From IMG/VR virus record IMGVR_UViG_3300021963_007405: a stretch of 64,000 bases of DNA, one strand, 5' to 3'. The first letter of the stretch is position 1; each line of letters starts with the position of its first letter. A program made the translations under genes and the position numbers. Positions 1,067-50,089 of the stretch are shown here, piece after piece. Origin of the DNA: an uncultured virus (IMG/VR IMGVR_UViG_3300021963_007405) (Duplodnaviria; Heunggongvirae; Uroviricota; Caudoviricetes). The notes under the pieces are model-generated. The model had not been told where the DNA came from. It did no database searches and worked only from the letters and a program-made list of their open reading frames with translations.

Positions 1067-1483
1067 TTATTTATCGTAGTCTATTTTTCCAATGACGTTA
1101 ATACGAAAAGTATTAGTTACTTTTCCATCATTTGAACTGGTGACAATGTAGCTTTCTTCTATTGTACCGTCAAGGAAAAAGATTATTTTTGTTGCAGATG
1201 TTTCTATTATTTTTAAATCGTTAGTTATTGCGGCGAGTTCATCAGGATTTTCTATAGAGTTTATAGTATAATCTTCAGAAAAAGATAGCTCAGATTGTTT
1301 TTGATGATATGCTGCTTGATGACGTTTATTTATTAGAAAGGTTTTTAAATTCTCTCTAGCTTCCTCATATCTGTTAGCGTTAAAAGAATCAAAGTTAATA
1401 ACAAGAGCGGCGATCAATGATAATAATATCACTGTCGCCAATACTATCTCTATAAGAGTAAATCCTTTAGATTTACCAGTCAT
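1067..1483 (-). CDS. Type IV pilin / T2SS pseudopilin (FimT/GspH-like)
   Basis: Prepilin cleavage/methylation motif KG|FTLIE followed by a hydrophobic helix. Confidence 0.8.
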   Translation of the reverse strand: MTGKSKGFTLIEIVLATVILLSLIAALVINFDSFNANRYEEARENLKTFLINKRHQAAYHQKQSELSFSEDYTINSIENPDELAAITNDLKIIETSATKIIFFLDGTIEESYIVTSSNDGKVTNTFRINVIGKIDYDK

Positions 1484-4725: not shown

Positions 4726-5835
4726 TTACTGATCGTCAGACTTTTCACTGACTGTCACAATAGTTACAAGACTATTAGACAAAGCAATGTTATCGTCTTC
4801 ATGAACGGTAAATCCTAGATCCAAACAAATATCCTTGATTTCTTGACAAGTGATATGCGTTCCCTTTAGACGGGATTGAATGGACTTGAGGGTAGCAGGA
4901 GTTCCGCCTTCAACGCGACCCTCAACGTAATTCTTAATAGCTAGAATAGTAGCATCGCTATATCCATAGTCTTCATTGATATTGCAACCACAATCGTCGT
5001 CGCAATTATCATCGTCATCATCAACGCTGATTTCTTCATCAGTGTTGTAATATGGCTCATTAAGAGGAGCTTCTTCTTCTTTAATACGCTCGAAAGGAAC
5101 TTCTCCAATGACCTTGTATTTAGAAACACGAAGCTTCTGGAAATTGCAATCAGTAGGAACACTAACTGCATTAGAAGGATCGAACTCAACCATCATAAGA
5201 TGGCCGTCGTTACCAGCCCAATCCTTTGCATAATCATAGCTGCCAATGTGCAAGCCATGAGAACAATGATTGTCCTTATTATCATCAACGCTGTTACGAG
5301 CAACTTCAATAGTTTCGCCAATCTTATTGAGAATGCAACCATTTTTATTTACAGTACCAGTGATCACAACAGTATTAGTGTTGCCATGCTTTGAATAATA
5401 ATCAGCATCAACGCCTTTATATCCAATAACATTGCCAGTCTCAGTCAATGGCAAAGTCTTATAAGAAAGAAAAGTGTACAACTGATCGACACTGTTCTTG
5501 CTAGGATTGAACATAAGCTTCTCAATAAAATTGAGAATAGGTTGAGCGTCCTTAGCTCCTGAGCGCAAAAACTCAAGAAGCTTGTCAATTACAAAACCCT
5601 TCAGTTCGTAATTGCCGTAATAAACCTTCTCAGAAACAATCTTAATGCTGTTATGCGAGAAGTCTTCGATCTGCTTCTTGATATCAAGAAATCGACCAAT
5701 ACTGTCGTATTCTGCATTAAGCAGAGCGTTCTTCAATCCAGTATAATTGGGATTATCCGTATTCACCGTATACGGTTGACCTTCCCAAATGACCGTGATT
5801 GCGTTGCTGGTGACAATGTATGCTGGCTTGTTCAT
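4726..5835 (-). CDS. rIIB: RIIB-like protein
   Basis: NPS...QLYTFL, GYKGV, CSHGLH, VSVPTD..QKLRV motifs; directly downstream of rIIA. Confidence 0.85.
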   Translation of the reverse strand: MNKPAYIVTSNAITVIWEGQPYTVNTDNPNYTGLKNALLNAEYDSIGRFLDIKKQIEDFSHNSIKIVSEKVYYGNYELKGFVIDKLLEFLRSGAKDAQPILNFIEKLMFNPSKNSVDQLYTFLSYKTLPLTETGNVIGYKGVDADYYSKHGNTNTVVITGTVNKNGCILNKIGETIEVARNSVDDNKDNHCSHGLHIGSYDYAKDWAGNDGHLMMVEFDPSNAVSVPTDCNFQKLRVSKYKVIGEVPFERIKEEEAPLNEPYYNTDEEISVDDDDDNCDDDCGCNINEDYGYSDATILAIKNYVEGRVEGGTPATLKSIQSRLKGTHITCQEIKDICLDLGFTVHEDDNIALSNSLVTIVTVSEKSDDQ

Positions 5836-5864
5836 AATATTTTTTACACCTTAACTGTTCAACT

Positions 5865-5892
5865 ATGCTAACTCAAATTTTCGAAAAGTCAA
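5865..5892 (-). promoter_or_regulatory. Sigma70-type promoter
   Basis: TTGACT-N16-TAGCAT upstream of rIIB. Confidence 0.5.
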
Positions 5893-8065
5893 CCGAATTT
5901 TGCTGGTTGATGAAGGAAATGTATGCCTTAAATTCAACTTCATTTTTATTGCGATCAGTATGGTAAAGATCGGAGTGAATTTTAAGCATTGGATAATTTT
6001 TATAAATTTCTTCGGTTGCTTGTTTTAGATATTTTCCGCAGATAGAAACTGGAGTTTCATTGTCGTGAGACATATTAATTTTAAGAACTTCGAGTACATT
6101 CCGCCATTTTTTAATAAAATTAGCGAATTCAAGCATATTTGCTTTCTTAAGAAGTTCTGAACAAAAATTCAGTTTATAATCATATTTCTGACAAGTACTA
6201 ATATCTGCAACCATGACAGTAAAAGTCATAATATTATATGCGTCATCAGTCTTGCAAGAAATGTATTCAAGAATCAAAGACTTAATTTCATCAGAACAAG
6301 CATTCCATTTATCTTGGATATACTTAATAATATCAACGAAATCAGCGCGATTTTTAAATTTAACAGTTGCGGCTACATTATTTGATACTCCATAAACACT
6401 GATCTTAAACAATTTGGTTATATCGTCTAAAAAATGAGTATTGAGTTTATTCTTTTCGTAGTAAAATTGTGAATACTGATTAATAGGCTTTCCATCAGAG
6501 ATGGGAAAATAAAGCTTAGTAATAGAAGTATCGTTAATTTCTTGACCGAAAATAGTTGAACAGCGGAAAGCAGAACCTTCAACCTTATAAAAATAATTAG
6601 GAGTATATGAACTAGTAGAAGCTTTCTTGTTAGAAGGAAGCTTTACTGGAGTCAATTCACTAAGATTGCAGTAACCAGACTTAACAAGATCAAATCGATT
6701 AACCTCTTTAAACTTGTCAACACCATTAAGAGTAGCAGAACTAATGATTGATTGATCGTGAGCAATAACGACTACGTTTTTGTATTTTTTAACTAATTCG
6801 TAAACGCGAGGAACAACCTTGGTATTGTCTGGCAAATCGTGAAATACAATATAAGTATCTTTATCATTACCAATGGTATAACATTTGGAAATAGCTACAC
6901 GATCACCAGATACGCAATAATTTTTAGCATAAATAGGAATTCTATTAGTTTTATCATTCTCTTCATAACTAGCACGATTGAAATTCCAAGTAATAATTTT
7001 ATGACCTTTAAAAACAAAAACATCTTGATTTTGAAGTTGGTCAAAAGCATTTCGAGGAAACGTCTGGCTAATATCTTTATAGTAAGACATAGCATCACGC
7101 AAACAATCAAATTGCGCGATCTTGTTCTTGATAGAGTCAGTGAATTCTTTGCAGAAAGCTTGATAACGGGATTTCAAATAAGCTTTAGTAGTCTTGTTGT
7201 ACTCAAGTGTTTCGCGTGAGTGATGCAGCGAAACAGATCCAATATCAGCAATAAAAACAAGCTTATTAAGATACTTAGTCCATGCGTAATCATCGTCACT
7301 CTTGAAATCAACAAGTTCAGGATTGATAGGATAATAAATGCCGCCCATTACAATACCCTGCTCACCAACTGAATAATGATTATAACCATTAACAGATTTG
7401 CGAATTTGCCAATTAGTACCAGAAGCAACAATCTCAGGCTTTGCAATTTCAACTTGCAAATTCAAGAAGTGAGGCTGAACTTCAAAATTACTAAAGAATG
7501 AAGAAATTTCCTGATTGAACTTGTTGATATCGCCGCTCGAAACACCCACAGAAATACAAATACCATTTGCTTCCAAGGTAGGCTCACAAAATATCTCGTC
7601 AATCTTAGTGTCATTCTCTTCTGAGATATAAACACTATAAATAGACTTGATACCTTCATGATAAGAAGTAATGGTAAAACTATCTTTATAGGAAAGCGGA
7701 GCAAATCGACCAATGCCGAAACCGCCGATTGAAAGATCGGAACCACGCTTGGTAGACTTGCCAAACTTACTATACAGATTAAAAATCTGATCGCGACTCA
7801 AACCAGTTCCATAATCACGAACAAAAAAAGTCTGATCAAAAGTAGTTGGCGATTTGATGTCGATAGCTTGGACGGGAAAATCGTTCTCCAAGTTGGCATC
7901 GACAGCATTGGCATAAGTCTCACGAATGGTCGCGAGAATCGTATTTGAATAATTGTTTCGCAGAAGCGAGGAAATGTACCTCATGTCTTCAGCGTCAATC
8001 GTGCAGTTTACAGTGGGAAAATCGTGCGAAGTCGCAACGACCCGATCAGCAACAAGTATCTTCAT
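5873..8065 (-). CDS. rIIA: RIIA-like protein (GHKL ATPase N-domain)
   Basis: RETYANAVDA, VRDYGTGLS, STKR, GGFGIG; paired with rIIB. Confidence 0.85.
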   Translation of the reverse strand: MKILVADRVVATSHDFPTVNCTIDAEDMRYISSLLRNNYSNTILATIRETYANAVDANLENDFPVQAIDIKSPTTFDQTFFVRDYGTGLSRDQIFNLYSKFGKSTKRGSDLSIGGFGIGRFAPLSYKDSFTITSYHEGIKSIYSVYISEENDTKIDEIFCEPTLEANGICISVGVSSGDINKFNQEISSFFSNFEVQPHFLNLQVEIAKPEIVASGTNWQIRKSVNGYNHYSVGEQGIVMGGIYYPINPELVDFKSDDDYAWTKYLNKLVFIADIGSVSLHHSRETLEYNKTTKAYLKSRYQAFCKEFTDSIKNKIAQFDCLRDAMSYYKDISQTFPRNAFDQLQNQDVFVFKGHKIITWNFNRASYEENDKTNRIPIYAKNYCVSGDRVAISKCYTIGNDKDTYIVFHDLPDNTKVVPRVYELVKKYKNVVVIAHDQSIISSATLNGVDKFKEVNRFDLVKSGYCNLSELTPVKLPSNKKASTSSYTPNYFYKVEGSAFRCSTIFGQEINDTSITKLYFPISDGKPINQYSQFYYEKNKLNTHFLDDITKLFKISVYGVSNNVAATVKFKNRADFVDIIKYIQDKWNACSDEIKSLILEYISCKTDDAYNIMTFTVMVADISTCQKYDYKLNFCSELLKKANMLEFANFIKKWRNVLEVLKINMSHDNETPVSICGKYLKQATEEIYKNYPMLKIHSDLYHTDRNKNEVEFKAYISFINQQNSVDFSKI

Positions 8066-13618: not shown

Positions 13619-13646
13619 AAAAAAACCGCCAACTTTCGTTGGCGGT
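13619..13646 (-). terminator. Intrinsic terminator
   Basis: ACCGCCAAC-GAAA-GTTGGCGGT followed by a T-run. Confidence 0.85.
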
Positions 13647-13671: not shown

Positions 13672-14376
13672 TTAGAAGTTCCAGCGAACACCAGCGACAG
13701 CAACGATGTCGCCGCTAAACTCTTGCGAAGCGAACTTGTACTTTGAAGCTGAGAAGTTGTTGTCATACCAACCGACTTCAGCATAAGGCTGCAAGTGGTT
13801 GAAGAAAGTGCGAGATACGCCGATCTTTGCCGCGACAACATCATAATCAGTGAACTTACCATACTCTATTGCTGGAGTAACAGTGACCCATCCAAATACA
13901 TCGGTTGGGCGTTCAACGCCAACGATATAACCAGATTGCTTTAGATTGAAGTCATGTGAACCACGAATATAAGGAGTTAGATATGGATTGACCAAAGCAA
14001 TCTTTGGGGCTAGTTCGATAGAATTACGACCACCAACAATTGAGCTTTGATGGCGTAGCAACTGTAGATCGCCACGAAGAGAAAACTTCTCGGTAATCTT
14101 TAGAGCCTTGCCTACACCTACATTCCAGTGAGATTCATCGATGCTGTTAGAATCAGGAAGAATAACACCACCGACATAACCATCTACGCCAAAATAAGTT
14201 GATCCAATATCAAAACCAGCGAAACCTTGTCCGCTAGTCTTGGCTAGACCATTTACGATGTAGTGGTTGTTGTAGCCAGCATTAATACTGGCGCGAACTG
14301 AAGACTCAGTATCCGCAGCAAAAACTGCGACTGAGGCTAGAATTGACACGATGAATAACTTAAATGATTTAATCAT
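13672..14376 (-). CDS. Outer-membrane beta-barrel protein (porin-like)
   Basis: Sec signal ending VFA, amphipathic beta-strands, C-terminal BAM signal VRWNF. Confidence 0.75.
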   Translation of the reverse strand: MIKSFKLFIVSILASVAVFAADTESSVRASINAGYNNHYIVNGLAKTSGQGFAGFDIGSTYFGVDGYVGGVILPDSNSIDESHWNVGVGKALKITEKFSLRGDLQLLRHQSSIVGGRNSIELAPKIALVNPYLTPYIRGSHDFNLKQSGYIVGVERPTDVFGWVTVTPAIEYGKFTDYDVVAAKIGVSRTFFNHLQPYAEVGWYDNNFSASKYKFASQEFSGDIVAVAGVRWNF

Positions 14377-14385
14377 AGGTATATA

Positions 14386-14413
14386 ATCTTACACAGATTC
14401 TGCGCCTTGTCAA
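14386..14413 (-). promoter_or_regulatory. Promoter (sigma70-type, also contains GTGTAA)
   Basis: TTGACA-N16-TAAGAT, then 9 nt to ATG. Confidence 0.6.
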
Positions 14414-15009
14414 CAAGTTTTTTCAGAGTCTTCTAGCTCTCTAATATTTATTAATTTACCGACATATTTACCATCTTCTTGTCTGACTGCTATACATTTT
14501 GCACTGAAAGATCTATTTTTACTATCTACAATTATTATTTCGTGTTCAAAGTTTCTTTTATTTTCTATTGCTATTTGCCAGCTTTCATTTATTTCTGTTC
14601 TAGTATTTTCGCAAAGAGCATTGATCCAATTATTGTTTTCTAAATCTTTAAATAATCTATCAGTCAAACGTATCATTGCGCTATTCGCCCAAGTAAAATT
14701 TCCGTTTTCATCTGTTTCAAATATCGGTTCTTCTCTATTATCTAATATCCATCTTTGTCGATAAAGAATTGTTTTAGTGGATAATTGAAGATCATTCATT
14801 TGATCTTTCAAGCTTTTACCGCCATTTGGTTTTAGTTCTTTAGAAATATGTGATATTTCATTTTTAAGAACCGCTATATCAGTAGTAATTGTTGTGAAAG
14901 GATGCAATTTTTTTAAAACATAAAACATATATCCGCAAAATGCTGTAATTACAACAATTGACGAGTTTATTTTATTTATAGTTTCAATAATTTCTTTTAG
15001 CGTATCCAT
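14410..15009 (-). CDS. Membrane-anchored PAS-domain protein
   Basis: N-terminal TM, coiled coil with ELKPNGGKSLKD, then PAS (PIFETDENGNFTWANSAM...W..A). Confidence 0.75.
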   Translation of the reverse strand: MDTLKEIIETINKINSSIVVITAFCGYMFYVLKKLHPFTTITTDIAVLKNEISHISKELKPNGGKSLKDQMNDLQLSTKTILYRQRWILDNREEPIFETDENGNFTWANSAMIRLTDRLFKDLENNNWINALCENTRTEINESWQIAIENKRNFEHEIIIVDSKNRSFSAKCIAVRQEDGKYVGKLINIRELEDSEKTC

Positions 15010-15018
15010 AATTTAATA

Positions 15019-16803
15019 TTATGATTTTACACCGTTTTCAACATTAGTAGAATCACTTTTTTTAACTCTTGAAGATGGAAAACTTTTATTTCCAAAATCA
15101 GAACTATATAAACTATATAATCTCATTACGACTCCATGTTTAACAATAACGTCGCCAAGATCTTCTACTAAAACATAATTAGGTCTATCATATTTAGCCA
15201 TAACGTCAGAGCTAACTAATAAATGATTGCTTTCACCTGCATCCATAACTCTTTGAGCATAATTAATTCCATCGCCGCTTATATTTAAGTTACCATTAAT
15301 ATCTTCTAATGGGCAAACATCGCCGCAGTGAACGCCCATTCTCATTTGTAAATCTTCTCTATTTTTTACAGCTTTTGCTACAGTAATGCCACAATTAATA
15401 GCGTCTTCAAGATAAGTAAAGAATCCAAGAATCATGCCATCGCCTGTTGGTAAAACAATTAATTTTTCAAGAGCGTTAGCGGTTTTAAATTGGATGGTTG
15501 ATTTAACTATTTCTCCCAAATCTTTAAATACTTTTCTTTGTTCATCAGTTGTTTTTTTACTGTATCCAACAATATCCATGAAAAATATATAGCCATCTTG
15601 TATTTTGTCCAATTCGAGACGACTAGATTTAACTTCGGCATCAATCGCCGCAACTTGATTTATTATTTTCTTAGGTGGTTTTGGAGCTTCAACTTTTTTA
15701 ATTTCTTCGACTTTCTTTTCTTCGACTGGCTTGTTTTTGCTTTTTAAAAATTCTTTCCAACTGATAGTTTTTTTGTCTTTTTTCTTTGGATCTTTTGCGA
15801 CTTCTTCTTCATGTATTTTTTTTAACTTAACTTCTTCTTCGTTTCTTTTATCAATGTAAGCTTGCATTTGTTTTTTAAATTCTTCGCTAATATGAATTGT
15901 AACGTCTTTGCCTCCACCTCCATTGTCGATTTTTTTCTTTCTTGCTGCTCCTTTTAATTGAAGCAGTGTTTGCATTTTAATGTTACCAGTTTTAAAAGCT
16001 AAATCTAAAGGAGCGATTTCACCTTTAAAGTCTGCACCATTAACATTAGCTCCTAGACAGATCAAAAATTCAACCATTTCAATATCATTAGCATTAACTG
16101 CATAATGAATTGGCATCCATCCATTTTTATCATCGCGACCATTTATGCGACCATCAATATCAAAATACTTTTGAACTCCTTCGAAGTCTCCTGTTTCAGC
16201 ACAAAAATGAATGCTTGAGCCACCAGAAGACTTTGCTCCTGCTTTAGTTAGTATTCTTACTATTTCTCCTCTATTGCCTAAAGCTAATACATCAATTGGA
16301 TTATTTTTACCTAAAAAGTCTTTAGAATTAACATCAGCACCTCTAAGTATTAAGTATTCAACTAAATGTTTTTGTCCATAATGAACTGCATAATGCATTG
16401 CAGTCCAACCTTTTGCAGCGTCAACTTCATTTAAAGTATGACCTTTATTCAACATTTCTTCTACTGAAATTATGTCGCCATTTTTAGCTGCCAAATGAAA
16501 GCTGCTTCCGCTGCCATATTTTGCACCACGTTTTTGAAGAATATCAACAATAGCTAAAAAACCTTTTTGTTCTGCAATATCAAGTGCTGTATTTTTACTT
16601 GTCCAATCCATCAAATTTATATCAGCACCATGATTTAATAATAATTCGACAATCTCTTTACTATTTTCTGACACGGCAACAATAAGAGGAGGATTTCCAG
16701 TATCTTCATCTCTTTCATTTATATTTACTTTATCTTTGACTATGCAATTATAAACATTATCGTATAAATTACGTCGGATATGAGTAAAAATATTTATTGC
16801 CAT
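15019..16803 (-). CDS. Ankyrin-repeat / class III nucleotidyl cyclase fusion
   Basis: About 8 ankyrin repeats (GWTAMHYAV, GADVN); cyclase motifs FMDIVGYS, TGDG, RMGVHCG, GDGINYAQRV. Confidence 0.9.
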   Translation of the reverse strand: MAINIFTHIRRNLYDNVYNCIVKDKVNINERDEDTGNPPLIVAVSENSKEIVELLLNHGADINLMDWTSKNTALDIAEQKGFLAIVDILQKRGAKYGSGSSFHLAAKNGDIISVEEMLNKGHTLNEVDAAKGWTAMHYAVHYGQKHLVEYLILRGADVNSKDFLGKNNPIDVLALGNRGEIVRILTKAGAKSSGGSSIHFCAETGDFEGVQKYFDIDGRINGRDDKNGWMPIHYAVNANDIEMVEFLICLGANVNGADFKGEIAPLDLAFKTGNIKMQTLLQLKGAARKKKIDNGGGGKDVTIHISEEFKKQMQAYIDKRNEEEVKLKKIHEEEVAKDPKKKDKKTISWKEFLKSKNKPVEEKKVEEIKKVEAPKPPKKIINQVAAIDAEVKSSRLELDKIQDGYIFFMDIVGYSKKTTDEQRKVFKDLGEIVKSTIQFKTANALEKLIVLPTGDGMILGFFTYLEDAINCGITVAKAVKNREDLQMRMGVHCGDVCPLEDINGNLNISGDGINYAQRVMDAGESNHLLVSSDVMAKYDRPNYVLVEDLGDVIVKHGVVMRLYSLYSSDFGNKSFPSSRVKKSDSTNVENGVKS

Positions 16804-17124
16804 TTATCGTTTTTTTCTTTTAGTTTTTTTTGATTTTGTTTTATGACCTACTTTCTCTAAAAACTTTTCGCTGACTATTTCTACTAATTTTAATCCTAAA
16901 AATCCTGCAATAAAAGCTATGCCATTTTGATGTTTAGTATTTGTTACGTTTAATGTATCAACTAGAACAGGAGTAAGGAAGTTGGCGGCTGACATTCCAC
17001 CGATTAAAGATAAAAATACAGATTTAATATCTGTTTTTTCGTTTTTGGTAGCCATTAATATAGCTCCAAATAAACCACTGATTAAAAATCCAATCTGGAT
17101 TCCCATTTTTTGAAGTTGGTCCAT
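16804..17124 (-). CDS. Holin-like 3-TM membrane protein
   Basis: 106 aa, three hydrophobic Gly-rich helices, highly basic C-terminal tail. Confidence 0.6.
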   Translation of the reverse strand: MDQLQKMGIQIGFLISGLFGAILMATKNEKTDIKSVFLSLIGGMSAANFLTPVLVDTLNVTNTKHQNGIAFIAGFLGLKLVEIVSEKFLEKVGHKTKSKKTKRKKR

Positions 17125-17127
17125 AAA

Positions 17128-17745
17128 TTATTTCTTTTTCTTTTTTATGGTTTTCTTTTTAATGGGTTGATTGTCGCTTTTAATTAAAAAAACTAATGAG
17201 ATAATAATCAAACATAAACTGTATAAATATATATTTAGTAGTTTTGTTTCATTATGAATTATTTTTTCTGAACTATTATTAATTAAATCTCTAAATTTTT
17301 CTTTGCTAAGATATATTCTCTTTTTATAATCTAAATATTTGTCACCAAAGAACGCTTTACTATCCATCTTTTCAAAAGCAGGCCCTTCTATTTCTTTTGC
17401 TAATTCATTGCTTATATCTAAACCAACTCTAAATTCTTTTAATTCCTCTTGAGTTAGTATTTTAGAAATAAAAACCTCGTTGTTGAAGTAATTTTCTCTT
17501 TCTTTTAAATGTACATTAAATTGCTCTAAGAATTTCTTATCTGCTGTAGCAGTATATGCAGCGCCAAGATATGTTAAATGATCTGTGGATCTTCTAAGGT
17601 AGAGAGTTATATCTCTACCAAATCTAAATCTTACAAATGCTTTTTCTATATCTTTTAGACTAGATAAAGCAAGCATAACAAGTATAGCAGTTGGCAAAAG
17701 CACTGCTAATAAGTATTTCTTTATATTTGAGACGACATTATTCAT
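17128..17745 (-). CDS. Stand-alone 2-TM periplasmic sensor-domain protein
   Basis: TM, helical domain (LRRSTDHLT..AYTATADKKFL...EEL..F...SNEL..IE..AF...FFGDKY), TM; resembles MCP/histidine-kinase ligand-binding domains. Confidence 0.55.
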   Translation of the reverse strand: MNNVVSNIKKYLLAVLLPTAILVMLALSSLKDIEKAFVRFRFGRDITLYLRRSTDHLTYLGAAYTATADKKFLEQFNVHLKERENYFNNEVFISKILTQEELKEFRVGLDISNELAKEIEGPAFEKMDSKAFFGDKYLDYKKRIYLSKEKFRDLINNSSEKIIHNETKLLNIYLYSLCLIIISLVFLIKSDNQPIKKKTIKKKKK

Positions 17746-18118
17746 TTTTCTTAAATCTACTAAGATCTAAATTAGCAAGTGGTTTTTCTATATTTAAAGA
17801 TGCGAGCCTTTCGTTTTGAACGACTAATTTGCTGCCGCCAAGAACTTTACCGTCAACTACGTCATAAATAAAAAATACAGTCTTGGTCAAACCGACTCTG
17901 ACAATTCTTCCCGGTTTTCCATCAACATACACTACATCATCTTCTTTATAGTCATTTCCAACAAACATAAATAAAGCGGCAGCAAATTTTTCAATGCTGG
18001 ATTTAAACATCAATGCTATTAATCCGATAATAAAAAGCCAAACATACTTTCCAGTAAGATCTTGGCCCGTAGATTCTAATACTTGTTGAGATATAATTTG
18101 TACGTTGTTTGTATCCAT
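17738..18118 (-). CDS. Truncated MscS-like membrane protein
   Basis: LMFKSSIEKFAAAL...YKEDDVVYVDGKPGRIVRVGLTKT matches the MscS TM3 plus middle beta domain. Confidence 0.55.
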   Translation of the reverse strand: MDTNNVQIISQQVLESTGQDLTGKYVWLFIIGLIALMFKSSIEKFAAALFMFVGNDYKEDDVVYVDGKPGRIVRVGLTKTVFFIYDVVDGKVLGGSKLVVQNERLASLNIEKPLANLDLSRFKKNE

Positions 18119-18121
18119 AAA

Positions 18122-19075
18122 TTATTTGATCCACTTTTGTTCTTTGAGTATGTCGTCTATTAAATCTTTTTCATCGCTATCCATTTCTTTATCGAAACGT
18201 TTTAATATTTCGGTTAATGGGTATATTTTATCTGGTGATTCTTTTTGTTTTTCTTTGAGTTCTTGAATAACGTCTACGATTTTAACAAGAGGAGATTTAA
18301 ATTGTTCCACTTTGTCGTGGGTGGCGAAATTGGCAAGTTCAAAAGCTTTAGGAGTAAGAGCTTTAAGAATAGATATCATTGCAGATCCCAACATATTAAA
18401 TATTGAGAATGCTGCGGCAGCGGCAGGATGAACTGTGGCAAGAAGACGAAGAATAACGAATACTACCACAAATACAATAATTGCAGTTAATGCGCTAATA
18501 AAGAACTTCTTTAACCCCCAAAATACTGCATTAAGACCAAACATTCCGCTCATTGAATCTAATACAGCTTTATTTTGATCAGCTTCTTTGGCGACTTCTT
18601 TGGCTTTGTCAGTTAGTTGCCAAAGTTGATCATCGTATTTTTGATTTAACTCTGCTTTTTCTTTCTGAAGTTTATTAATTATTTCATCGCGTTGAGAAAG
18701 CATTTCTTCGCCTTTCCTGCGTTCTTCGACTAAGGCGGAATTTAGTAAATCTACTGTAGCTTTAATTCTTTTTGTTTCGTCTATGTGAGGCGAACCTACA
18801 ATAGAAATGACTCTTTCGTTTAATTTTAAAGCTGTGTCTACTTGTACAGGAGCATTAGTAACTTGATTCAAAGAATGCTGAATACCGACAGAAAGACCAG
18901 AGGTTTGGATTCTCTTGCCTTTGTCGTTTTTTTCTATTTCTACTAAAGTAGTGTCTACTTTTTTCTCTTCTTTAGCGATAACTTTCTGATTATCATCTAG
19001 TTGTTTTGCTGGCTTGATTGTGGAAAAGCAACCAGTCAAAAATAAAAAGAGTAATAAAAGAATGGATTTTTTCAT
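18122..19075 (-). CDS. Lipoprotein with coiled coil and C-proximal TM segments (u-spanin-like topology)
   Basis: Lipobox LTG|C, long helical region, then hydrophobic helices in the C-terminal half. Confidence 0.55.
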   Translation of the reverse strand: MKKSILLLLFLFLTGCFSTIKPAKQLDDNQKVIAKEEKKVDTTLVEIEKNDKGKRIQTSGLSVGIQHSLNQVTNAPVQVDTALKLNERVISIVGSPHIDETKRIKATVDLLNSALVEERRKGEEMLSQRDEIINKLQKEKAELNQKYDDQLWQLTDKAKEVAKEADQNKAVLDSMSGMFGLNAVFWGLKKFFISALTAIIVFVVVFVILRLLATVHPAAAAAFSIFNMLGSAMISILKALTPKAFELANFATHDKVEQFKSPLVKIVDVIQELKEKQKESPDKIYPLTEILKRFDKEMDSDEKDLIDDILKEQKWIK

Positions 19076-19123
19076 TCATATATCTTTACACTAATTTGTT
19101 ATTATGTGTGTATTTTATAATAT

Positions 19124-19468
19124 ATGCTATTAGTGCCGTTTATTTTATTTATTTGGTTCGAGAGTGATATTATAATAACTTTAATAAATATTTTTAAGTT
19201 AGACAAAAAATTATTTATTGAAGAATATAAAAAAGAAAGACTTGAAATTTCTGAAAAACTACACTATTTGGATTTTCTGCACGTTAGGAAAGCTAGTTTT
19301 TTTACTAAATTAATAAGTTGTCCAATATGCTTGTGTTTTTGGTTAACTTTTATTCAATCTTTATTGAGATACGATAGTTTAAAGCTATGCATGTTTATGT
19401 TTGGATTTAATTATTTTATCAACTTGATAGTTTATTTATTAGTGAAAAAATTTTATGATAATAAATAA
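19124..19468 (+). CDS. DUF1360-like membrane protein
   Basis: LISCPICLCFW motif between hydrophobic segments. Confidence 0.5.
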   Translation: MLLVPFILFIWFESDIIITLINIFKLDKKLFIEEYKKERLEISEKLHYLDFLHVRKASFFTKLISCPICLCFWLTFIQSLLRYDSLKLCMFMFGFNYFINLIVYLLVKKFYDNK

Positions 19469-19736
19469 TTTTATAGAATTTGAACAATTAATTCGCGCTT
19501 TTCAGTTACAAAATACAGAAGAATTTTATAACTATTTTAATGGTTATCAAAATATATGTATTTGTAAGCCAGTGTTAAAACAACTATATTATGATAAATG
19601 CAATAAAAGTTATGTAAGATATTTATCTAATAATCAAGAACATATACGTTCTAAATTATTAGAAAATAATAAAGATTCTATATATAAATTTTTACAATCG
19701 GATTCTAAAGAAATTTTAACAATTCGTGCGCAATAA
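19455..19736 (+). CDS. Hypothetical protein
   Basis: Overlaps the preceding ORF. Confidence 0.45.
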   Translation: MIINNFIEFEQLIRAFQLQNTEEFYNYFNGYQNICICKPVLKQLYYDKCNKSYVRYLSNNQEHIRSKLLENNKDSIYKFLQSDSKEILTIRAQ

Positions 19737-26308: not shown

Positions 26309-27457
26309 TTATTGACTAGCTTTTAGAAGAGCTTCTAGTTTACCATTTGGAGTTGTAATTCCACCAATAGCTGTAAAGATAGAAAGTCCTTCTTTTACTC
26401 CCTTATAAACACCTTGATGAACAGTGCTGTTAGTCTTCAAAGTTCTATTAAGTTGATTGAAAGCGTTGTCTAAATATTCTTGAGGAATATTATCTAGCGT
26501 CTTTTCATCACAAATAGCCACAGCAGCAGCGGTGCTACCAGTAGAAAGATCAAGCTCGCCGCAAAGAACATTTCTCTTGAGATTTTCGCGAACTGCTTTG
26601 CTGATTTCGGCTTCGTTGCTATGATTAGTAATGTTAGCTGCACCAAAAACCATAATACCAGAATCGAGAACAGTTCTAAAATCATTTGTATCAAATGTGC
26701 TATATTGACTATTCTTAGTAATAATATTATTAAATAAATGGAATAAAGAACAAATATTTGCGTTTGCTACTTGCCAAAACTTATTTACAGAGAGCTTTGG
26801 ATAAAGAGTATTAATTCTTTCATTATCAAGAATAATAAGAGGAGAAACAATCTTTTGCTCTACTAGTTCACAAGCTTCCTTTAGTGTCTCATAAGCATTT
26901 TGACTAACTTTCTTACCTTCAGAAAGCTTTGGCAAAGCGAGAATTAGACCAACATAAGGAGAACTTGCCTTTACAGTATTTTGATATTCCTTAACAGTCT
27001 TAACGAGTTCGGAGCAAACACCAGCACCAGTTCCACCACCAGCACCAACTGTTACAAAAATACGATCTATATCCGTACCAATTGAAGATTTAATAAAATC
27101 GACTACATCTTCTTTACTATTTAAGAAAGCTTGTTTAGCAAACTCTCTATTCTTTCCTGCTCCTTGCTGCTCGCCAAACTTCATTTTGTTTGGTACATTG
27201 ATAGTAGCAAGATCTTGATCAGCAGTATTAATTACACCAACGCGAGCATAACCAATTTGAGAGAATGTTTCAGCTAATTTGCCGCCACCTTGACCAGCAC
27301 CAATAAAGCCAAATTTAAAACCAACTGCATCTTTGTCCTTTGGTTCGGGTTTTTCTGATTGAGGAGGCTCAGGAATATCTGGCATCGCAAAATCAAACGT
27401 ATCGTTTGAAGCTGGAGGATTTGGATTCATACCGTAAATAGGATTATGATCGTTCAT
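26309..27457 (-). CDS. Tubulin/FtsZ-family GTPase
   Basis: GAGQGG, GGGTGAG tubulin signature, ILDN, T7-like DTNDF. Confidence 0.9.
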   Translation of the reverse strand: MNDHNPIYGMNPNPPASNDTFDFAMPDIPEPPQSEKPEPKDKDAVGFKFGFIGAGQGGGKLAETFSQIGYARVGVINTADQDLATINVPNKMKFGEQQGAGKNREFAKQAFLNSKEDVVDFIKSSIGTDIDRIFVTVGAGGGTGAGVCSELVKTVKEYQNTVKASSPYVGLILALPKLSEGKKVSQNAYETLKEACELVEQKIVSPLIILDNERINTLYPKLSVNKFWQVANANICSLFHLFNNIITKNSQYSTFDTNDFRTVLDSGIMVFGAANITNHSNEAEISKAVRENLKRNVLCGELDLSTGSTAAAVAICDEKTLDNIPQEYLDNAFNQLNRTLKTNSTVHQGVYKGVKEGLSIFTAIGGITTPNGKLEALLKASQ

Positions 27458-44557: not shown

Positions 44558-45613
44558 CTAGATTTTAAAATTATCTATGTCATACTTTACCATACGTTCT
44601 ACAAGGTTGTCAAACGAAATTTTTGGATTCCAGTCTAATTCTTCTCTTGCTGGAGTTGAGTCGCCAAATAAAAGATCAACTTCAGCAGGTCTGTAAAATT
44701 TAGGATTAATTTTAATTAAAACTGATGATTGAGGTTCATTTTTAATAGCATATTCAGTAGATACGCTCATTTGTTCCTCTTGTCCATGTCCATGCCAAAT
44801 GCCTTGTATACCAGAGCTATGAAAAGATTTATTAATAAATTCTCTAATTGTATGCGTTTCGTTGCTCGAAAGAACATAGTCTTTAGGTGATTTTTGGTTC
44901 ATGATTTTCCAAACTCCTTCAACGAAATCTTCAGAATCAGACCAGTCTCTTTTTGCATCTAAATTTCCAAGCTCAATTGGAGCAAATGGTTTATTATTTT
45001 TAATGGCGTGATAAATGCGAGCCACGCCTTTAGTAATTTTTCTTGTAACAAATTCTTCTCCGCGTTTAGTTCCTTCATGATTAAAAAGAATGCAATGTAC
45101 AGCGTATAAATTATAAGATTCACGATAAACCTTAACAAGATGACGAGCGGCAGCTTTGCTCGCACCGTATGGGCTTCTAGGTCTTACGGGATGATGAATG
45201 TCTTGTGGGGTATACTGTACATCTCCGAATTCTTCACTAGATCCAGCAGAATAAAAACGACATTTAGGCTGAAATCTACGAATAGCTTCTAGACATCTCG
45301 CTACACCATTGGCATTCACATCAAAAGTTTGAAGAGGAATTTCCCAACTGCATCCAACAAAACTTTGAGCAGCAAAATTAATAAAATAATCAGGCTGAAT
45401 ATCTCTCACCAGATTATCTAGACTAACGCTATCAGCCAAATCTCCATAAACCAATTGAAATCTTTCATTATTAATAAAAGATCTACAATTAACAAAATTA
45501 GGATTCGATGTGCGCCGAATCATGCCAAAAATCTTAGCTTCAGTATTCTTTAGAAGATACTCGACCATGTTTGCACCATCTTGACCTAATATGCCAGTTA
45601 CTATTACTTTCAT
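44558..45613 (-). CDS. gmd: GDP-mannose 4,6-dehydratase
   Basis: TGILGQDG, AQSFV, SPYGASK, FNHE, FVTRKI. Confidence 0.95.
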   Translation of the reverse strand: MKVIVTGILGQDGANMVEYLLKNTEAKIFGMIRRTSNPNFVNCRSFINNERFQLVYGDLADSVSLDNLVRDIQPDYFINFAAQSFVGCSWEIPLQTFDVNANGVARCLEAIRRFQPKCRFYSAGSSEEFGDVQYTPQDIHHPVRPRSPYGASKAAARHLVKVYRESYNLYAVHCILFNHEGTKRGEEFVTRKITKGVARIYHAIKNNKPFAPIELGNLDAKRDWSDSEDFVEGVWKIMNQKSPKDYVLSSNETHTIREFINKSFHSSGIQGIWHGHGQEEQMSVSTEYAIKNEPQSSVLIKINPKFYRPAEVDLLFGDSTPAREELDWNPKISFDNLVERMVKYDIDNFKI

Positions 45614-46563
45614 AGCTTTAATTTATCTTGATTATTTAAATACCAATTATAAGTATCTTTTAATCCATCTTCTAATTTTATTTTTGCAACATAGCCGAGC
45701 TTTTTTAATCTATTACAATCTAATAGTTTTCGCATTGTTCCGTCTGGCTTTGATAAATCAAATTTAATAGATCCTTCATATCCAACTGTAACTGCAATTT
45801 TTTCAGCTAATTCGTAGATAGTCGTTTCAAAGCCACTTCCAACATTTATTTGAGAAATATTTTGAGAATATAAATCTTTTGCTTCTAAATTATTAATTAA
45901 GTGTAAACACGCATCTGCCATATCATCAACATGCATAAATTCTCTTTTAGCTTTACCGGTACCCCAAATTTCTACAACTGGATCATCGTTTATTTTTGCT
46001 AAATGAAAACGATGTAATAAACCTGGCAAAACATGTGAATTCATTGGATGAAAATTATCATTTGGGCCATATAAATTTGTTGGCATTACAGAAATAAAAT
46101 TACATCCATATTGTTTATAATAGCTTTCGCACATTTTAATTCCTGCTATTTTGGCAATTGCATATGGTTCGTTTGTATATTCTAAAGGAGAAGTTAATAA
46201 ATATTCTTCTTTAATAGGTTGTTCAGCAAATTTAGGATAAATGCAAGAACTGCCTAAAAATAAAAGTTTTTTTACTCCAGATAGATAACAAGAATGAATT
46301 ATATTATTTTGTATTTGTAAATTTTGATATATGAAATCGGCTCTTTTAGTATTATTGGAGTGAATTCCTCCGACTTTTGCAGCGCAATCAATAACAAGAT
46401 CAAAAGAGTATTCTTTGAATAAATCTAAACATTTTTGTTGATTTGTGAGATCAATTTTGTTTTTTGTAAAAGTATAAATTACATCTTTCTCGTTTCTTTC
46501 GATAAGTTTTTTTAAAATGGCTTGTCCGACCATCCCTTTATGACCTGCTAGAAAAATTTTCAT
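45610..46563 (-). CDS. fcl: GDP-L-fucose synthase
   Basis: GHKGMVG, AAKVGGI, LGSSCIYP, YAIAK. Confidence 0.95.
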   Translation of the reverse strand: MKIFLAGHKGMVGQAILKKLIERNEKDVIYTFTKNKIDLTNQQKCLDLFKEYSFDLVIDCAAKVGGIHSNNTKRADFIYQNLQIQNNIIHSCYLSGVKKLLFLGSSCIYPKFAEQPIKEEYLLTSPLEYTNEPYAIAKIAGIKMCESYYKQYGCNFISVMPTNLYGPNDNFHPMNSHVLPGLLHRFHLAKINDDPVVEIWGTGKAKREFMHVDDMADACLHLINNLEAKDLYSQNISQINVGSGFETTIYELAEKIAVTVGYEGSIKFDLSKPDGTMRKLLDCNRLKKLGYVAKIKLEDGLKDTYNWYLNNQDKLKL

Positions 46564-46577
46564 ATACGTTATTTATT

Positions 46578-47348
46578 TTAACACCAATTGGGTTTCATGT
46601 CTGTTAGTTTAGAATAAGTTTCATTTATATTAATTTTTCCATAGTTAAAATTAATATTGAATGGAGATAAATTTTTAACATCTAAAAGATCCGCATTGTC
46701 ATCTAAAAATTTAATATAATTACTGTTCATTGGAAAATAATAAACTTTATTATCTGCATCAATATCAACAAAAAAAACATTATAATTATTTTGAATAGTG
46801 ATTTTTTTATATTTAAGGTAAGAGCAAAAAAATGCTACTTCAGCTCTTGTTCTTATATCGATTCCCTCATAAATGAAATCATTGTTTAGTAAAGAATTTA
46901 TTAAAGTCGTATAAATGCCTCTCATTGTTTCTTTTGTTCCACAAATTATAGAATCAGATAAATGATAAGGCATTGTTGGGTTAATTGTTAAGTTATCACA
47001 AATAAATTTATCTTTATCATTAGTTAAAATTTTATTTATTATATACTTTAAATTTGAAAAACAATGATTGCTTCTAATTTTAATACAATATTTACCATCT
47101 GCTAATTTTAATCCTTCGTTAACAGAGCGAGCATGCCGAAACATGTTTTGATAATTATATATTTCATCGATGGTTTCAGAATCAAAAAGGCATATTTTAT
47201 CATAAAAAGAAATGTTTTTCGCTATATCGCTTGTATATTTTTTATCTGTAGATAAAATTATTTCTCCATATTTTTTGCAATCTTCTATCATTTCAAGATG
47301 TTCGGTTCTATATGGACCATGAAATATAAATGAAAATTGTTTATTCAT
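46578..47348 (-). CDS. WavE-like glycan biosynthesis protein
   Basis: HGP, IILST, N..R..S...GL, KIRS. Confidence 0.45.
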   Translation of the reverse strand: MNKQFSFIFHGPYRTEHLEMIEDCKKYGEIILSTDKKYTSDIAKNISFYDKICLFDSETIDEIYNYQNMFRHARSVNEGLKLADGKYCIKIRSNHCFSNLKYIINKILTNDKDKFICDNLTINPTMPYHLSDSIICGTKETMRGIYTTLINSLLNNDFIYEGIDIRTRAEVAFFCSYLKYKKITIQNNYNVFFVDIDADNKVYYFPMNSNYIKFLDDNADLLDVKNLSPFNINFNYGKININETYSKLTDMKPNWC

Positions 47349-47787
47349 AATTTTTATATCTTAGCACATAATCACTACAGATTCCGTAGCATTTATCAAG
47401 TTCTCCAACATAGCCCAATTCTGGCAAAACACAAATACTGTTTGGATATAAAATTTTATTTGGATAAGTCCATATATATTTTTTGCTTGTTAATATCCAG
47501 TCTTCGTTTGTGTGCCAAAATACATTAAAATAGTAATTTTTATCATTAAGTAATTTATAAAATGCTTCGCCATTTTTAGCGTGTAACCAGAATCGAGAAT
47601 CAAATAAAAAATTATATTTTATTTCGTATGTAGGGTTATCATGACCTAAATACCATTTATTATTGACAAACCAAATATCGATTTCAACATCATAACCCGT
47701 TTCAATAGCTTCGTTTATATAATTAGGCGAGTTTTCTTTATCTAGTCGTGGACCGTCAATATTTCCTCTATGTGATATAAGATTCAT
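47341..47787 (-). CDS. GDPD/PI-PLC-like phosphodiesterase
   Basis: ISHRGN, EN, DVEIDIW, LGHD, HAKN. Confidence 0.7.
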   Translation of the reverse strand: MNLISHRGNIDGPRLDKENSPNYINEAIETGYDVEIDIWFVNNKWYLGHDNPTYEIKYNFLFDSRFWLHAKNGEAFYKLLNDKNYYFNVFWHTNEDWILTSKKYIWTYPNKILYPNSICVLPELGYVGELDKCYGICSDYVLRYKNYE

Positions 47788-47792
47788 TATTT

Positions 47793-48629
47793 TTAATTAC
47801 GATCTACATGAAGTTTTATAAAAACATTTTCCATATCTGATTCTTGTATTTCAGTTTTAATCCACATTGGATTATATTCAACAAATAATTTTGTAAATAA
47901 TTCTTGATCTATATTATTTTGGTCTTCAATAAAACTGCTATTTAATGATGAATGTTTTATTACTTTTAATTCAATTTTGTTTGTTACTAATAAATAATAA
48001 CAATATACAATATAGTCAAAATCAAACCAACTTATTTCATGTTTAATTTTTTCATAATTAATGTATTCCAAAAACTTTAGATAAAGCTCTTTATTGTAAA
48101 TACATATATTATTAAACCAAAAATACAATTTAAAATTATGAGTCAAATGAGATAATGTTTTTTGATCTGATTCTTTAAAAAATTTAACACAGCTTATTAT
48201 TATATTCTTTATATAATTACTTGATTCGTCTTTTATAAAATTTGCATGTATTTTTTTATTATTTAAATATTGATGGAATAATAAATTATAGTCAACTTTT
48301 TTAATAAACAAACAATCAACATCAATTACTGCAACATTTTGGTTATCTGTATTTTTATATATATAATTTAATCCAAACCATTTTTTAAGAGTGATAATTC
48401 CTTTTAAAAAAGGGTCATATTCATCTGTATATATTATTGATCTATATTTAATATTTTTATCGTTATAAATTTTATTAAATGTATCAAAGTGTTCTTGGTT
48501 TGAAAATACTAAGTATATATTGCAGTCATTAAATAAATCATTATATGTTTTGACTAAATTGTAACCATACTCAAATTTATCAATATGAATTGGAGCTAAA
48601 AAACAAGACTTGTTTATTGATTCATTCAT
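47793..48629 (-). CDS. Putative glycosyltransferase
   Basis: DxD motif (IDVD); glycan-locus context. Confidence 0.4.
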   Translation of the reverse strand: MNESINKSCFLAPIHIDKFEYGYNLVKTYNDLFNDCNIYLVFSNQEHFDTFNKIYNDKNIKYRSIIYTDEYDPFLKGIITLKKWFGLNYIYKNTDNQNVAVIDVDCLFIKKVDYNLLFHQYLNNKKIHANFIKDESSNYIKNIIISCVKFFKESDQKTLSHLTHNFKLYFWFNNICIYNKELYLKFLEYINYEKIKHEISWFDFDYIVYCYYLLVTNKIELKVIKHSSLNSSFIEDQNNIDQELFTKLFVEYNPMWIKTEIQESDMENVFIKLHVDRN

Positions 48630-48695
48630 GGTCTGTGTATTTATTATTTATTTAGTTTTGTTTTCTTTTGATTTATTTAATCTTTTGCGTTTACT

Positions 48696-49040
48696 TCATG
48701 CGGTATCGATTTCATCATCTATATGTTTATCATTTATAGTTGATGGAATTTTTATAACAATCATTTCGCAATTTTCAAGAAAAATAGGTTTTATAGATTC
48801 GTTTTTTTCAATTACAAAAATTTTTCCTTCTTCTATAATTACATTGTTTATTTTCATTTTGCCGCGAATCAAATAATTTATTTCATCGCTTTTTTTATGA
48901 TGATGTTTCGGCCAAAACTCATCTTTGTTATGGGTCTTATAAGAAATTTCAAATAAATCAGTTTTTATTACAGAAGGTTCAAAATTACCTATGAACCAAC
49001 CACCTTTTTCAAGAAACTTTTTTGAATCAAAAATTTTCAT
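48696..49040 (-). CDS. Cupin protein
   Basis: GWFIGNF, HHHK..E motif. Confidence 0.7.
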   Translation of the reverse strand: MKIFDSKKFLEKGGWFIGNFEPSVIKTDLFEISYKTHNKDEFWPKHHHKKSDEINYLIRGKMKINNVIIEEGKIFVIEKNESIKPIFLENCEMIVIKIPSTINDKHIDDEIDTA

Positions 49041-49041
49041 T

Positions 49042-50052
49042 TCAACCTTGAACTTGTTTATTTATCCATTCAAAAGTTTTCTCTAGTCCAACTTTCAGTG
49101 GCTGAGATACTTCCCAGCCGATTTTTTGTCTGTAAAGTCTATTATCAGAATTACGACCTTTTACACCTAGAGGGCATTTGTGACCATATTTTTTGAAAAA
49201 TTCTTCACCATATAGATTTTTAATTTTTATATTTTTATTAGCAATTTGAATAGCCATTTCAGCTAGTTGATTGATTGTGACTTTCTCTTCAGATCCAATA
49301 TTTACTGGACCTGAAAAACTATCTTGCCTCATGAACTTTAAAACAGCTTCTATACATTCATCAATATAAAGAAAACTTCTTGTTTGTTGACCGTCTCCCC
49401 ATACTTCTATTTCTCCACCATTTGGAGTTTCAGAAGCCTTTCTGCACATAGCTGCTGGAGCCTTTTCTCTGCCGCCTTTCCATGTTCCATGAGGACCAAA
49501 TACATTGTGAAATCTAGCTACTCTAACTTTAATTCCATAATTCCTTTCAAAAGCCAAAAACAATCTTTCGCTAAATAACTTTTCCCATCCATATTCACTA
49601 TCTGGATTTGCTGGATAAGCAGAAGATTCTTCACAATTTGGATTATCAGGATCTAATTGATTATGTTCTGGATACATGCAAGCAGAAGAAGAATAAAATA
49701 ATCTACCAATTTTTTGTTCTACAGCTTCTTTAGCAACGTTTAAATTTATTAATGCAGAGTTATGCATAACATCTGCATCATGATTTCCAGTGAAAATATA
49801 TAAGGCTCCACCCATGTCGGCAGCAAGTTGATACACCTCATCAAATGTTCTAGAATCGTGACTCATTACTTTCTTAACAAAACTAGGATCTCTTAGATCT
49901 CCTTTGTAAAATTCATGGCAAATAATAGAATGATCAAGATATTCATGATTTTTGATATCAGCTATTCTTACAAAATTGCCATCCTCTTTTAGTTTCTTTG
50001 CTAAGTTACCACCAATAAAACCGCCACCTCCTAAAACTAAAATATTTTTCAT
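49042..50052 (-). CDS. GDP-mannose 3,5-epimerase-like SDR
   Basis: GGGGFIG, LAADMGG, SSACMYP, YGWEK, KAPAAMCRK. Confidence 0.88.
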   Translation of the reverse strand: MKNILVLGGGGFIGGNLAKKLKEDGNFVRIADIKNHEYLDHSIICHEFYKGDLRDPSFVKKVMSHDSRTFDEVYQLAADMGGALYIFTGNHDADVMHNSALINLNVAKEAVEQKIGRLFYSSSACMYPEHNQLDPDNPNCEESSAYPANPDSEYGWEKLFSERLFLAFERNYGIKVRVARFHNVFGPHGTWKGGREKAPAAMCRKASETPNGGEIEVWGDGQQTRSFLYIDECIEAVLKFMRQDSFSGPVNIGSEEKVTINQLAEMAIQIANKNIKIKNLYGEEFFKKYGHKCPLGVKGRNSDNRLYRQKIGWEVSQPLKVGLEKTFEWINKQVQG

Positions 50053-50089
50053 TTGTAATAATATTTTATTATTTTATGAATTCAATAGA

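Follow-up and report, generated by a model that had tools for sequence, protein, structure and literature searches.

Does the run of six minus-strand genes between positions 14,410 and 19,075 of an uncultured tailed phage (IMG/VR record IMGVR_UViG_3300021963_007405, Caudoviricetes; the whole 64,000-nucleotide (nt) stretch analysed is called the window below) encode one signal-controlled lysis system, or does it bring together genes with separate histories? The run was first described, in what we call here the original prediction, as six tightly packed genes whose products form a membrane complex that couples periplasmic, redox or tension cues to lysis timing through a cyclic nucleotide or direct binding. 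The list of open reading frames (ORFs) agrees with the coordinates and the packing: in transcription order, the first two genes are 3 nt apart, the second and third overlap by 8 nt, and the remaining gaps measure 3, 0 and 9 nt. The domain types proposed at the time also largely hold (a lipoprotein with transmembrane (TM) segments, a sensor-like protein, a holin, an ankyrin-cyclase and a TM-anchored PAS protein), the MscS part being a weak match. The genes are, in transcription order and with lengths in amino acids (aa):

18122..19075, minus strand: envelope lipoprotein, anchor gene of the island; 317 aa, with LTGC as its lipobox, ~160 aa forming a periplasmic domain, two TM segments and a C-terminal domain of 80 aa
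17738..18118, minus strand: putative mini-MscS; 126 aa, a single TM helix and then a small beta domain
17128..17745, minus strand: sensor-like protein with two TM segments (2-TM protein); 205 aa, with a periplasmic four-helix bundle (CHASE3-like), a basic tail and no output domain
16804..17124, minus strand: holin-family protein (phrog_2359); 106 aa, three TM segments and a basic C-terminal tail
15019..16803, minus strand: ankyrin and class III nucleotide cyclase protein; 594 aa, soluble, with a Lys-rich linker and a C-terminal cyclase domain
14410..15009, minus strand: TM-anchored PAS protein, swappable cargo; 199 aa, PAS_9, TM segment at residues 14-32
13672..14376, minus strand: secreted barrel-like protein, the seventh gene; signal-peptide-like N-terminus and weak family matches

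The explanation that we favour, with a probability of about 60% for the explanation taken as a whole, is that the region is a hypervariable accessory island in the genome of an uncultured large (~175 kb, kilobases) water phage, anchored by the lipoprotein gene, where cassettes are gained and lost independently at gene borders. The window would then hold a rare combination of these cassettes, namely mini-MscS, 2-TM protein plus holin, ankyrin-cyclase, TM-PAS protein and barrel-like protein.

Lack of co-conservation across relatives had been named beforehand as one finding able to refute the six-gene complex. The lipoprotein gene, which was found in all three relatives' records searched (G001, G004 and G005, two of them CheckV-complete) and matched 123 IMG/VR stretches, was chosen as the anchor of a census to avoid seeding bias, and among the best 80 of the 123 loci those with at least 3.5 kb downstream were counted (n = 67). 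Mini-MscS and cyclase occurred without the holin in 52 of these loci, and the 2-TM protein and holin without mini-MscS or cyclase in 6; a single locus, in the complete genome G004, carried all four, 7 had neither module and 1 had mini-MscS only. The mini-MscS gene was next after the lipoprotein gene in 54/67. Dereplication at 97% lipoprotein nucleotide identity left 23 lineages, of which 11 had mini-MscS and cyclase, 4 the 2-TM protein and holin, 1 all of them, 6 neither module and 1 mini-MscS only. The holin pair and the cyclase are thus together in 1 of 67 loci and 1 of 23 lineages, which speaks against a conserved complex relaying cues to lysis through a cyclic nucleotide. Loci seeded with the cyclase gave the same picture, with the 2-TM and holin pair present in 2 of 76, between mini-MscS and cyclase, and the cyclase was found in 2 of the 10 holin-seeded loci, on those same contigs. 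The complete relative G001 (296 kb, CheckV 100%) encodes the cyclase, with the lipoprotein and mini-MscS genes 15 kb away, and gave no holin homologue at E ≤ 0.01. The PAS gene is rarer still (5/76 cyclase-seeded and 2/67 lipoprotein-anchored loci). The gene set proposed as a unit is therefore not co-conserved.

Nucleotide identity shows that the cluster in the window is a recombinant of at least three ancestries. The segment from 16805 to 12806, which holds the cyclase, PAS, barrel-like and HNH genes, is 96.7% identical over 4 kb to the related contig L001, and for the lipoprotein and mini-MscS genes the identity to that contig is 83-84%. L001 lacks the 2-TM and holin genes, its mini-MscS gene being joined straight to the cyclase gene. 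The missing segment can be defined to the nucleotide:

16806..17747, minus strand: 2-TM and holin cassette, an insertion/deletion of 942 nt whose ends coincide exactly with gene borders

The cassette (17749-16810) is 88.9% identical to that of another contig, L077, which has no mini-MscS, cyclase or PAS gene. The cassette-less form exists in nature, because a contig from the RNA-library run X20 joins 16805 to 17748 and skips the 942 nt, although this contig may derive from DNA. Upstream of the lipoprotein gene, two plus-strand ORFs at 19124-19736 (a multi-TM protein of 114 aa and a protein of 93 aa) stand in place of the 436-aa gene that precedes the lipoprotein in L001 and L077, and this swap is a further recombination point at the upstream edge of the island.

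The arrangement of putative expression signals was analyzed next to the gene borders. The cluster had been described as lying behind a single GTGTAA motif, and it has three, each 10-17 nt 5' of a start codon; the signals and the end of the run are as follows:

19086..19091, minus strand: GTGTAA signal 1, 10 nt 5' of the lipoprotein start
15027..15032, minus strand: GTGTAA signal 2, within the last cyclase codons, 17 nt 5' of the PAS start
14389..14394, minus strand: GTGTAA signal 3, 12 nt 5' of the start of the barrel-like gene
13625..13646, minus strand: hairpin resembling an intrinsic terminator, with a stem of 9 pairs (6 G-C) and a T run after it; it ends the gene run

On the minus strand of the window, GTGTAA lies 8-17 nt 5' of an ATG in 8 of 80 ORFs, compared to 0.54 on average and at most 4 under random placement (2000 trials), and three of these eight belong to the island cluster, in front of the lipoprotein, PAS and barrel-like genes. 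The eight positions are 5844, 14389, 15027, 19086, 26303, 27675, 37919 and 42294. The overall count of the motif in the window is not raised (21 against 23 expected). In this phage group GTGTAA probably serves as a promoter or start signal. Before the lipoprotein gene it is kept in 7/15 relatives, in two of them directly after a terminator hairpin, and other relatives carry an AT-rich TATTTATA-like motif at its place. Genes on the same strand are usually packed tightly in this phage, so packing by itself means no more than chance; moreover, the co-directional run goes on to the seventh gene (13672-14376), and the hairpin at 13646-13625 is the sole strong terminator of the run. An RNA-library contig ends nearby, at 13617, which is a weak hint only; the RNA-library evidence consists of contigs in all runs, and these may derive from DNA. 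The mosaic distribution, the recombination borders and the separate GTGTAA signals before the lipoprotein, PAS and barrel-like genes together lead us to read the cluster as separate modules.

Two of the genes behave as a unit. The 2-TM gene lies directly 5' of the holin gene in all 10 holin-seeded loci, in all 7 holin-bearing loci of the lipoprotein census and in the window, and it was intact at the holin-bearing loci where this was checked; the two genes are strictly paired and were never seen apart. To this extent the earlier proposal that a sensor controls the holin keeps its ground, whereas its extension to control by all six genes finds no support.

The holin has TM segments at residues 7-25, 36-54 and 68-86 and a charged C-terminal tail, KTKSKKTKRKKR, and matches phrog_2359, annotated 'holin', at 4.6e-13. 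Its family has few members (175 cluster representatives at E ≤ 0.001) and is typical of phages. All 70 remote relatives examined matched phrog_2359, with a few also matching other holin PHROGs, and 5 of the 70 gave weak matches to Pfam holin models (holin superfamily III). A context scan of 39 ORFs covered 6 of 13 loci from two distant family members, the other 7 loci being near-duplicates, and found an endolysin or amidase gene at most 2 ORFs from the holin-family gene in 4 of the 6, all in other phage lineages. Judged by this genomic context, the phrog_2359-type family is a lysis-cassette holin family. In size, in its three TM segments and in its basic tail the protein resembles class I holins (lambda S, LydA; PHROG 2359, superfamily III), and it differs from them in lacking an adjoining endolysin and in the weak Pfam matches of its relatives. 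Two other assignments were discarded. A dual-start motif (Met1...Lys6-Met7) was ruled out as Met7 is Leu in 3/16 sequences, and the name YeaQ/YmgE, given to a few relatives by JGI, was ruled out as Pfam had no such match for the holin or its 70 relatives.

Its partner has TM segments at residues 12-30 and 170-188 and ends 17 residues past the second one, with a 15-residue basic tail. The part between them is all-helical in a confident model (predicted local distance difference test (pLDDT) 83.6), for which the best VIA-align match was 3va9_A, the sensor domain of HK9 (Z 13.6, root-mean-square deviation 2.3, 120/127 residues aligned), which we take to be a CHASE3 domain. Ranks 1-9 were all periplasmic sensor domains of kinases or chemoreceptors (Z 13.6-9.5). 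Foldseek found none at E ≤ 0.001, with 4k0d at a probability of 0.99, and the nearest named Atlas cluster by language-model neighbourhood was CHASE3 (score 0.96, 170 shared features). Pfam, PHROGs, NCBIfam and PADLOC gave no family at the thresholds used, antiholin families included. Most of the columns invariant among 16 sequences of the protein fall within the periplasmic bundle. Like the CHASE3 and 4HB sensor domains (3va9 of HK9, 4k0d, Tsr, NarX), the protein thus consists of a TM segment, a bundle of ~140 aa and a second TM segment; unlike these sensors, it has no HAMP, kinase, cyclase or methyl-accepting output, and only the short basic tail follows its second TM segment.

Probably, therefore, the holin is paired with a membrane regulator of its own, which faces the periplasm and belongs to no known antiholin family, and a two-gene module of a sensor-like protein and a holin would be a reasonable new form of holin regulation. 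P1 LydA/LydB is an adjacent holin/antiholin pair, and phage T4 has a comparable couple in its holin T and periplasmic antiholin RI, which act in lysis inhibition. As in T4, the holin gene stays with a gene for another membrane protein, whose conserved domain faces the periplasm. However, the 2-TM protein has no sequence or family link to T4 RI or P1 LydB, and in contrast to RI it is a two-TM four-helix bundle of the chemoreceptor or kinase type. Furthermore, the holin of the window, unlike T4 T, with its three TM segments exposes next to nothing in the periplasm, so the partners would have to meet within the membrane. RI is described as binding T and as a presumed sensor of periplasmic signals (PMC8385771, PMC11413866). 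By analogy with such pairs, the holin would make the lesion in the inner membrane and the 2-TM neighbour would tune its timing, contacting the holin in the membrane as its periplasmic bundle reads a periplasmic condition. That the protein represents a new kind of antiholin, a chemoreceptor-type periplasmic ligand sensor reduced to its input module and directly gating a class I holin in the membrane, is a tentative idea that we regard as rather unlikely.

In the ankyrin-cyclase, Pfam recognises ankyrin repeats (1e-34) and a Guanylate_cyc domain (25.4 bits against a cut-off of 21.9), and the domain matches 3mr7 (9e-6), Ma1120 and Rv1900c in PDB. Residues D410, D455, N514 and R518 are invariant; we take the first two to be the metal aspartates and the others to be the Asn/Arg pair. 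With these and a full catalytic domain the protein resembles the soluble class III cyclases 3mr7, Ma1120 (4wp9) and Rv1900c/LipJ (1ybt), and it differs from them in its fusion to ankyrin repeats and in the Leu/Asn pair of an uncharacterised cellular subfamily. At Leu451 and Asn507, presumably the base-specifying positions, cellular relatives at 43-46% identity have the same residues, and the canonical Lys/Asp (adenine) or Glu/Cys (guanine) pair is absent. Pycsar, which combines PycC with an effector, was considered and ruled out, as PADLOC matched the ankyrin part only and no cNMP-binding effector was found.

A cNMP_binding domain was found in none of the five relatives' records searched (0/5), the same search recovering it in 11 of 14 control genomes. 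Because of this absence, the receptor of the cyclic nucleotide would be host-encoded or of an unrecognised kind, and the enzyme would make a cytoplasmic cyclic nucleotide that serves another end, probably through a host receptor. Coupling between the cyclase and lysis is required by no evidence. A few kb from the island, G004 has a gene with a cREC_REC domain (PF20274, 'cyclic-phosphate processing receiver', 2.2e-19; L085:2652-3047, minus strand); it is also present in L080, L083, L084 and L086, which include cyclase-less relatives, and is not in the window (tblastn E > 8).

The same insertion site receives other genes in relatives. A 70-aa gene follows the cyclase and a 73-aa gene for a coiled-coil and TM protein follows the holin, and further cargo behind the lipoprotein includes a Mom-like gene (Pfam 1.8e-44) and an Ala/Gly-rich 307-aa gene. 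A Mom-family gene comes after the cyclase cassette in 42/80 lipoprotein-anchored loci (for example L020:10026-10799), and none stands there in the window. A third cassette, present in 16 loci, encodes a porin-like secreted protein, a TM-sensor cyclase of 479 aa and an HD-domain protein:

L119:7344-10204 (corresponding to ~272.8-275.6 kb of G001): example of the third cassette; also in L182-L195, L052 and L054

It lies behind the lipoprotein and mini-MscS genes or the ankyrin cyclase gene in all 9 loci with a visible upstream side, the other 7 being cut there, and in some phages it stands in tandem with the ankyrin cyclase, giving two cyclases. Its cyclase, P0361, combines a TM sensor with a canonical class III domain (Guanylate_cyc 5.8e-27) that is distantly related to that of the ankyrin cyclase. 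The sensor is unrelated to the 2-TM protein of the window (hhalign probability 0.2%). The HD-domain protein belongs to the NCBIfam Npun_R2479 family (2.5e-11); PDB returned only spurious repeat-protein matches for this HD-like gene, and these were discarded. As the third cassette inserts here, the site attracts cyclic-nucleotide genes repeatedly, whether or not a holin is present.

The anchor gene encodes a strongly conserved protein. Its TM segments (191-209 and 219-237) are followed by the conserved 80-aa domain, and in an alignment of 12 sequences (66-88% identity) Cys16 and the motif MSGMFGLNAV.WG.KKF are invariant. Pfam and PHROGs gave only weak matches, including the spanin family phrog_3268 at E = 0.041, and the Atlas neighbours are unnamed viral clusters. 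Unimolecular spanins are defined by a lipobox plus an inner-membrane anchor (PMC6139136). Like unimolecular spanins such as T1 gp11, the lipoprotein has the N-terminal lipoylation signal (LTGC with the invariant Cys) and an inner-membrane anchor, and could bridge both membranes. Unlike these ~130-aa proteins, it has 317 aa, is strongly conserved, carries two TM segments and the 80-aa domain rather than a C-terminal TM segment as its last element, and shows no similarity to spanin families beyond the match mentioned above.

The mini-MscS matched the Pfam model MS_channel_2nd at E = 0.021 (15.3 bits, the cut-off of 20.2 not being reached), and a profile search of PDB sequences gave no match. The model of the protein, a poor one (pLDDT 57.9), has helices at 11-39 and 41-53 and then four strands, and all of its top 10 Foldseek rows were MscS or MSL10 channels (E 2.5e-3 to 7.6e-3). 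The helix-kink-helix and the small beta domain may thus resemble the pore helix and beta domain of MscS, the evidence being weak. In contrast to MscS channels, the protein with its single TM helix has neither the outer TM helices nor the C-terminal vestibule, or cage. As for the remaining cargo, the PAS protein exceeded the Pfam cut-offs for PAS_9 (1.3e-7; 32.3 bits against 27) and PAS (27.2 against 22.6), with no match among PDB sequences at E ≤ 0.1. The barrel-like protein matched OMP_b-brl (E = 4e-4, below the cut-off) and the OmpO porin (0.041), and its product may be an outer-membrane beta-barrel.

Several observations weigh against the explanation of the region as an island of independent cassettes with a holin pair acting in lysis. 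The complete relative G004, whose genome is otherwise diverged and rearranged with respect to the window, shares the five-gene order collinearly (76% nucleotide identity), and this order is also partly visible on a third contig (L014/L078). The combination is thus no single chance event and may be under selection. Many of the contigs counted are near-duplicates, come from one collection and were seeded by these very genes. As for the sensor-like protein, a Z of 13.6 can be reached by helical bundles through common architecture, and the Pfam CHASE3 model did not match the protein at E ≤ 0.1. Finally, no endolysin is encoded near the holin and none of the endolysin families of Pfam and PHROGs was detected in the window ORFs scanned, so that the pairing of holin and endolysin typical of lysis cassettes is absent at this locus and the putative lysis role of the pair follows from family context only.

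An endolysin was also looked for in the relatives. None was found in G004 among 126 ORFs of 90-420 aa searched with Pfam (1e-6) and 82 of them searched with PHROGs (1e-8), ORFs outside 90-420 aa not being searched. In G001-G005, a search restricted to Phage_lysozyme, SLT, Amidase_2 and Peptidase_M15_4 returned one sub-threshold Amidase_2 match with four stops. This lineage may have a lysin of a kind not yet described, or one contained in a large protein.

How do other explanations fare against these data? The original prediction, in which all six proteins make up one membrane complex and periplasmic, redox or tension sensing reaches the holin via the cyclase or through direct binding and so sets the timing of lysis, draws on the six co-directional genes with gaps of at most 9 nt, on the fusion of the same domain types in bacterial sensor cyclases, of which the TM-sensor cyclase at the same site in a relative is an instance, and on the recurrence of the five-gene order in G004 at 76%. 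We nevertheless consider it very improbable. Both modules meet in one lineage of 23, the cyclase does without a holin in 52/67 loci and in a complete holin-less genome, and the PAS gene, found in 2/67 loci, has its own upstream signal in what is a recent recombinant cluster. Moreover, the sensor of the fused cyclase is not homologous to the 2-TM protein.

It is unlikely, though less so, that the island serves host takeover or superinfection exclusion by remodelling the envelope, the holin pair being non-lytic (a controlled leak, or phage exclusion) rather than a lysis holin. The cargo would suit such a role, as it is variable, has many envelope proteins (lipoprotein, barrel-like protein, small TM proteins) and adjoins a Mom-like gene in most relatives, and an HNH gene; complete relatives dispense with the holin, no endolysin is near, and the setting is one of replication and nucleotide-metabolism genes. 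The distant members of the holin family, however, lie in ordinary lysis cassettes, PADLOC found no defence family among the membrane proteins, and the absence of the holin from G001 counts for little, since holins are often replaced by unrelated ones. Quite unlikely, in turn, is an arrangement in which the lipoprotein is a spanin-like bridge and either mini-MscS or the 2-TM protein and holin provide alternative lesion modules of one lysis cassette, the cyclases being unrelated insertions. The lipobox and inner-membrane anchor do follow the logic of unimolecular spanins, and mini-MscS and the holin pair each come directly after the lipoprotein and occur together in 1/23 lineages only. However, that near-exclusivity is not significant (~2.8 joint lineages expected, 1 seen), 6 lineages have neither module, the TM segments are not C-terminal, an 80-aa domain following them, and the sole spanin match is the PHROG at E = 0.041; we also know of no mini-MscS that acts as a holin. 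We therefore retain the reading of a lipoprotein-anchored island with independently exchanged cassettes.

In the openly accessible literature we found no comparable phage system, whether an ankyrin and class III cyclase, an antiholin sensor, MscS with a holin or CHASE3 with a holin. New here are the 2-TM and holin cassette with its exact borders, the genomic surroundings of holin-family genes in other phages, and the third cassette, that of the TM-sensor cyclase. To our knowledge, T-even phages are the only ones in which signal-dependent control of lysis timing is understood in detail; a few further cases are reported (ICP1, N4). If the proposed regulation is correct, the phage would time lysis by an environmental or superinfection signal, in a counterpart of T4 lysis inhibition that makes use of a bacterial sensor domain, and a chemoreceptor-type sensor always inherited with a holin would provide a second, structurally different route to read the outside before lysis. 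In the rare lineages that bear the cyclase as well, lysis control and a phage-made cyclic nucleotide would then be expressed together from the same transcription unit. The locus also illustrates that a striking 'system' seen in one genome can be a recombinant of independent cassettes, and that in abundant uncultured phages of lakes and estuaries one insertion site repeatedly gathers two unrelated kinds of class III cyclase beside envelope proteins.

The phage of the window has a large genome of low guanine-plus-cytosine (GC) content (~25-40%). Related IMG/VR records reach 174.5 kb and 296 kb, each CheckV 100%. Its gene content includes RIIA/RIIB-like proteins, a DnaE-type polymerase, a primase, a helicase, a UvsX-like recombinase, a ribonucleotide reductase, a dUTPase and a Lon-like protease, together with three tRNA genes, and the island is located among nucleotide-metabolism and replication genes and not among structural genes. 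As the polymerase is less than 30% identical to that of any GenBank phage, the lineage is regarded as uncultured. GenBank phages gave no blastn match to the region and no tblastn match to the holin or the 2-TM protein, and they matched the ankyrin cyclase via its ankyrin repeats only. Near-identical DNA was found in public runs labelled marine, estuary and freshwater metagenomes (20 rows, 13 studies).

Other genes of the window were recorded in passing. RIIA-like (730 aa, 3e-88) and RIIB-like (369 aa, 3.8e-60) genes, labelled 'lysis inhibitor' in PHROGs, lie at 4726-8065 (minus strand), ~7 kb from the island. A protein of the tubulin/FtsZ family is encoded at 26309-27457 (minus strand; Tubulin 1e-11); it is TubZ/PhuZ-like, with a TubZ-like C-terminal domain, and may be compared with those of the tubulin-spindle phages. 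At 1067-1483 (minus strand), a 138-aa protein has a prokaryotic N-terminal methylation motif of the type IV pilin kind (Pfam N_methyl 7.2e-5). Finally, a long run of sugar-nucleotide epimerase and glycosyltransferase-like genes occupies 44558-62000 (minus strand), with a GC content of 25-29%, below that of the rest of the window, and is a large surface-sugar or DNA-modification island.

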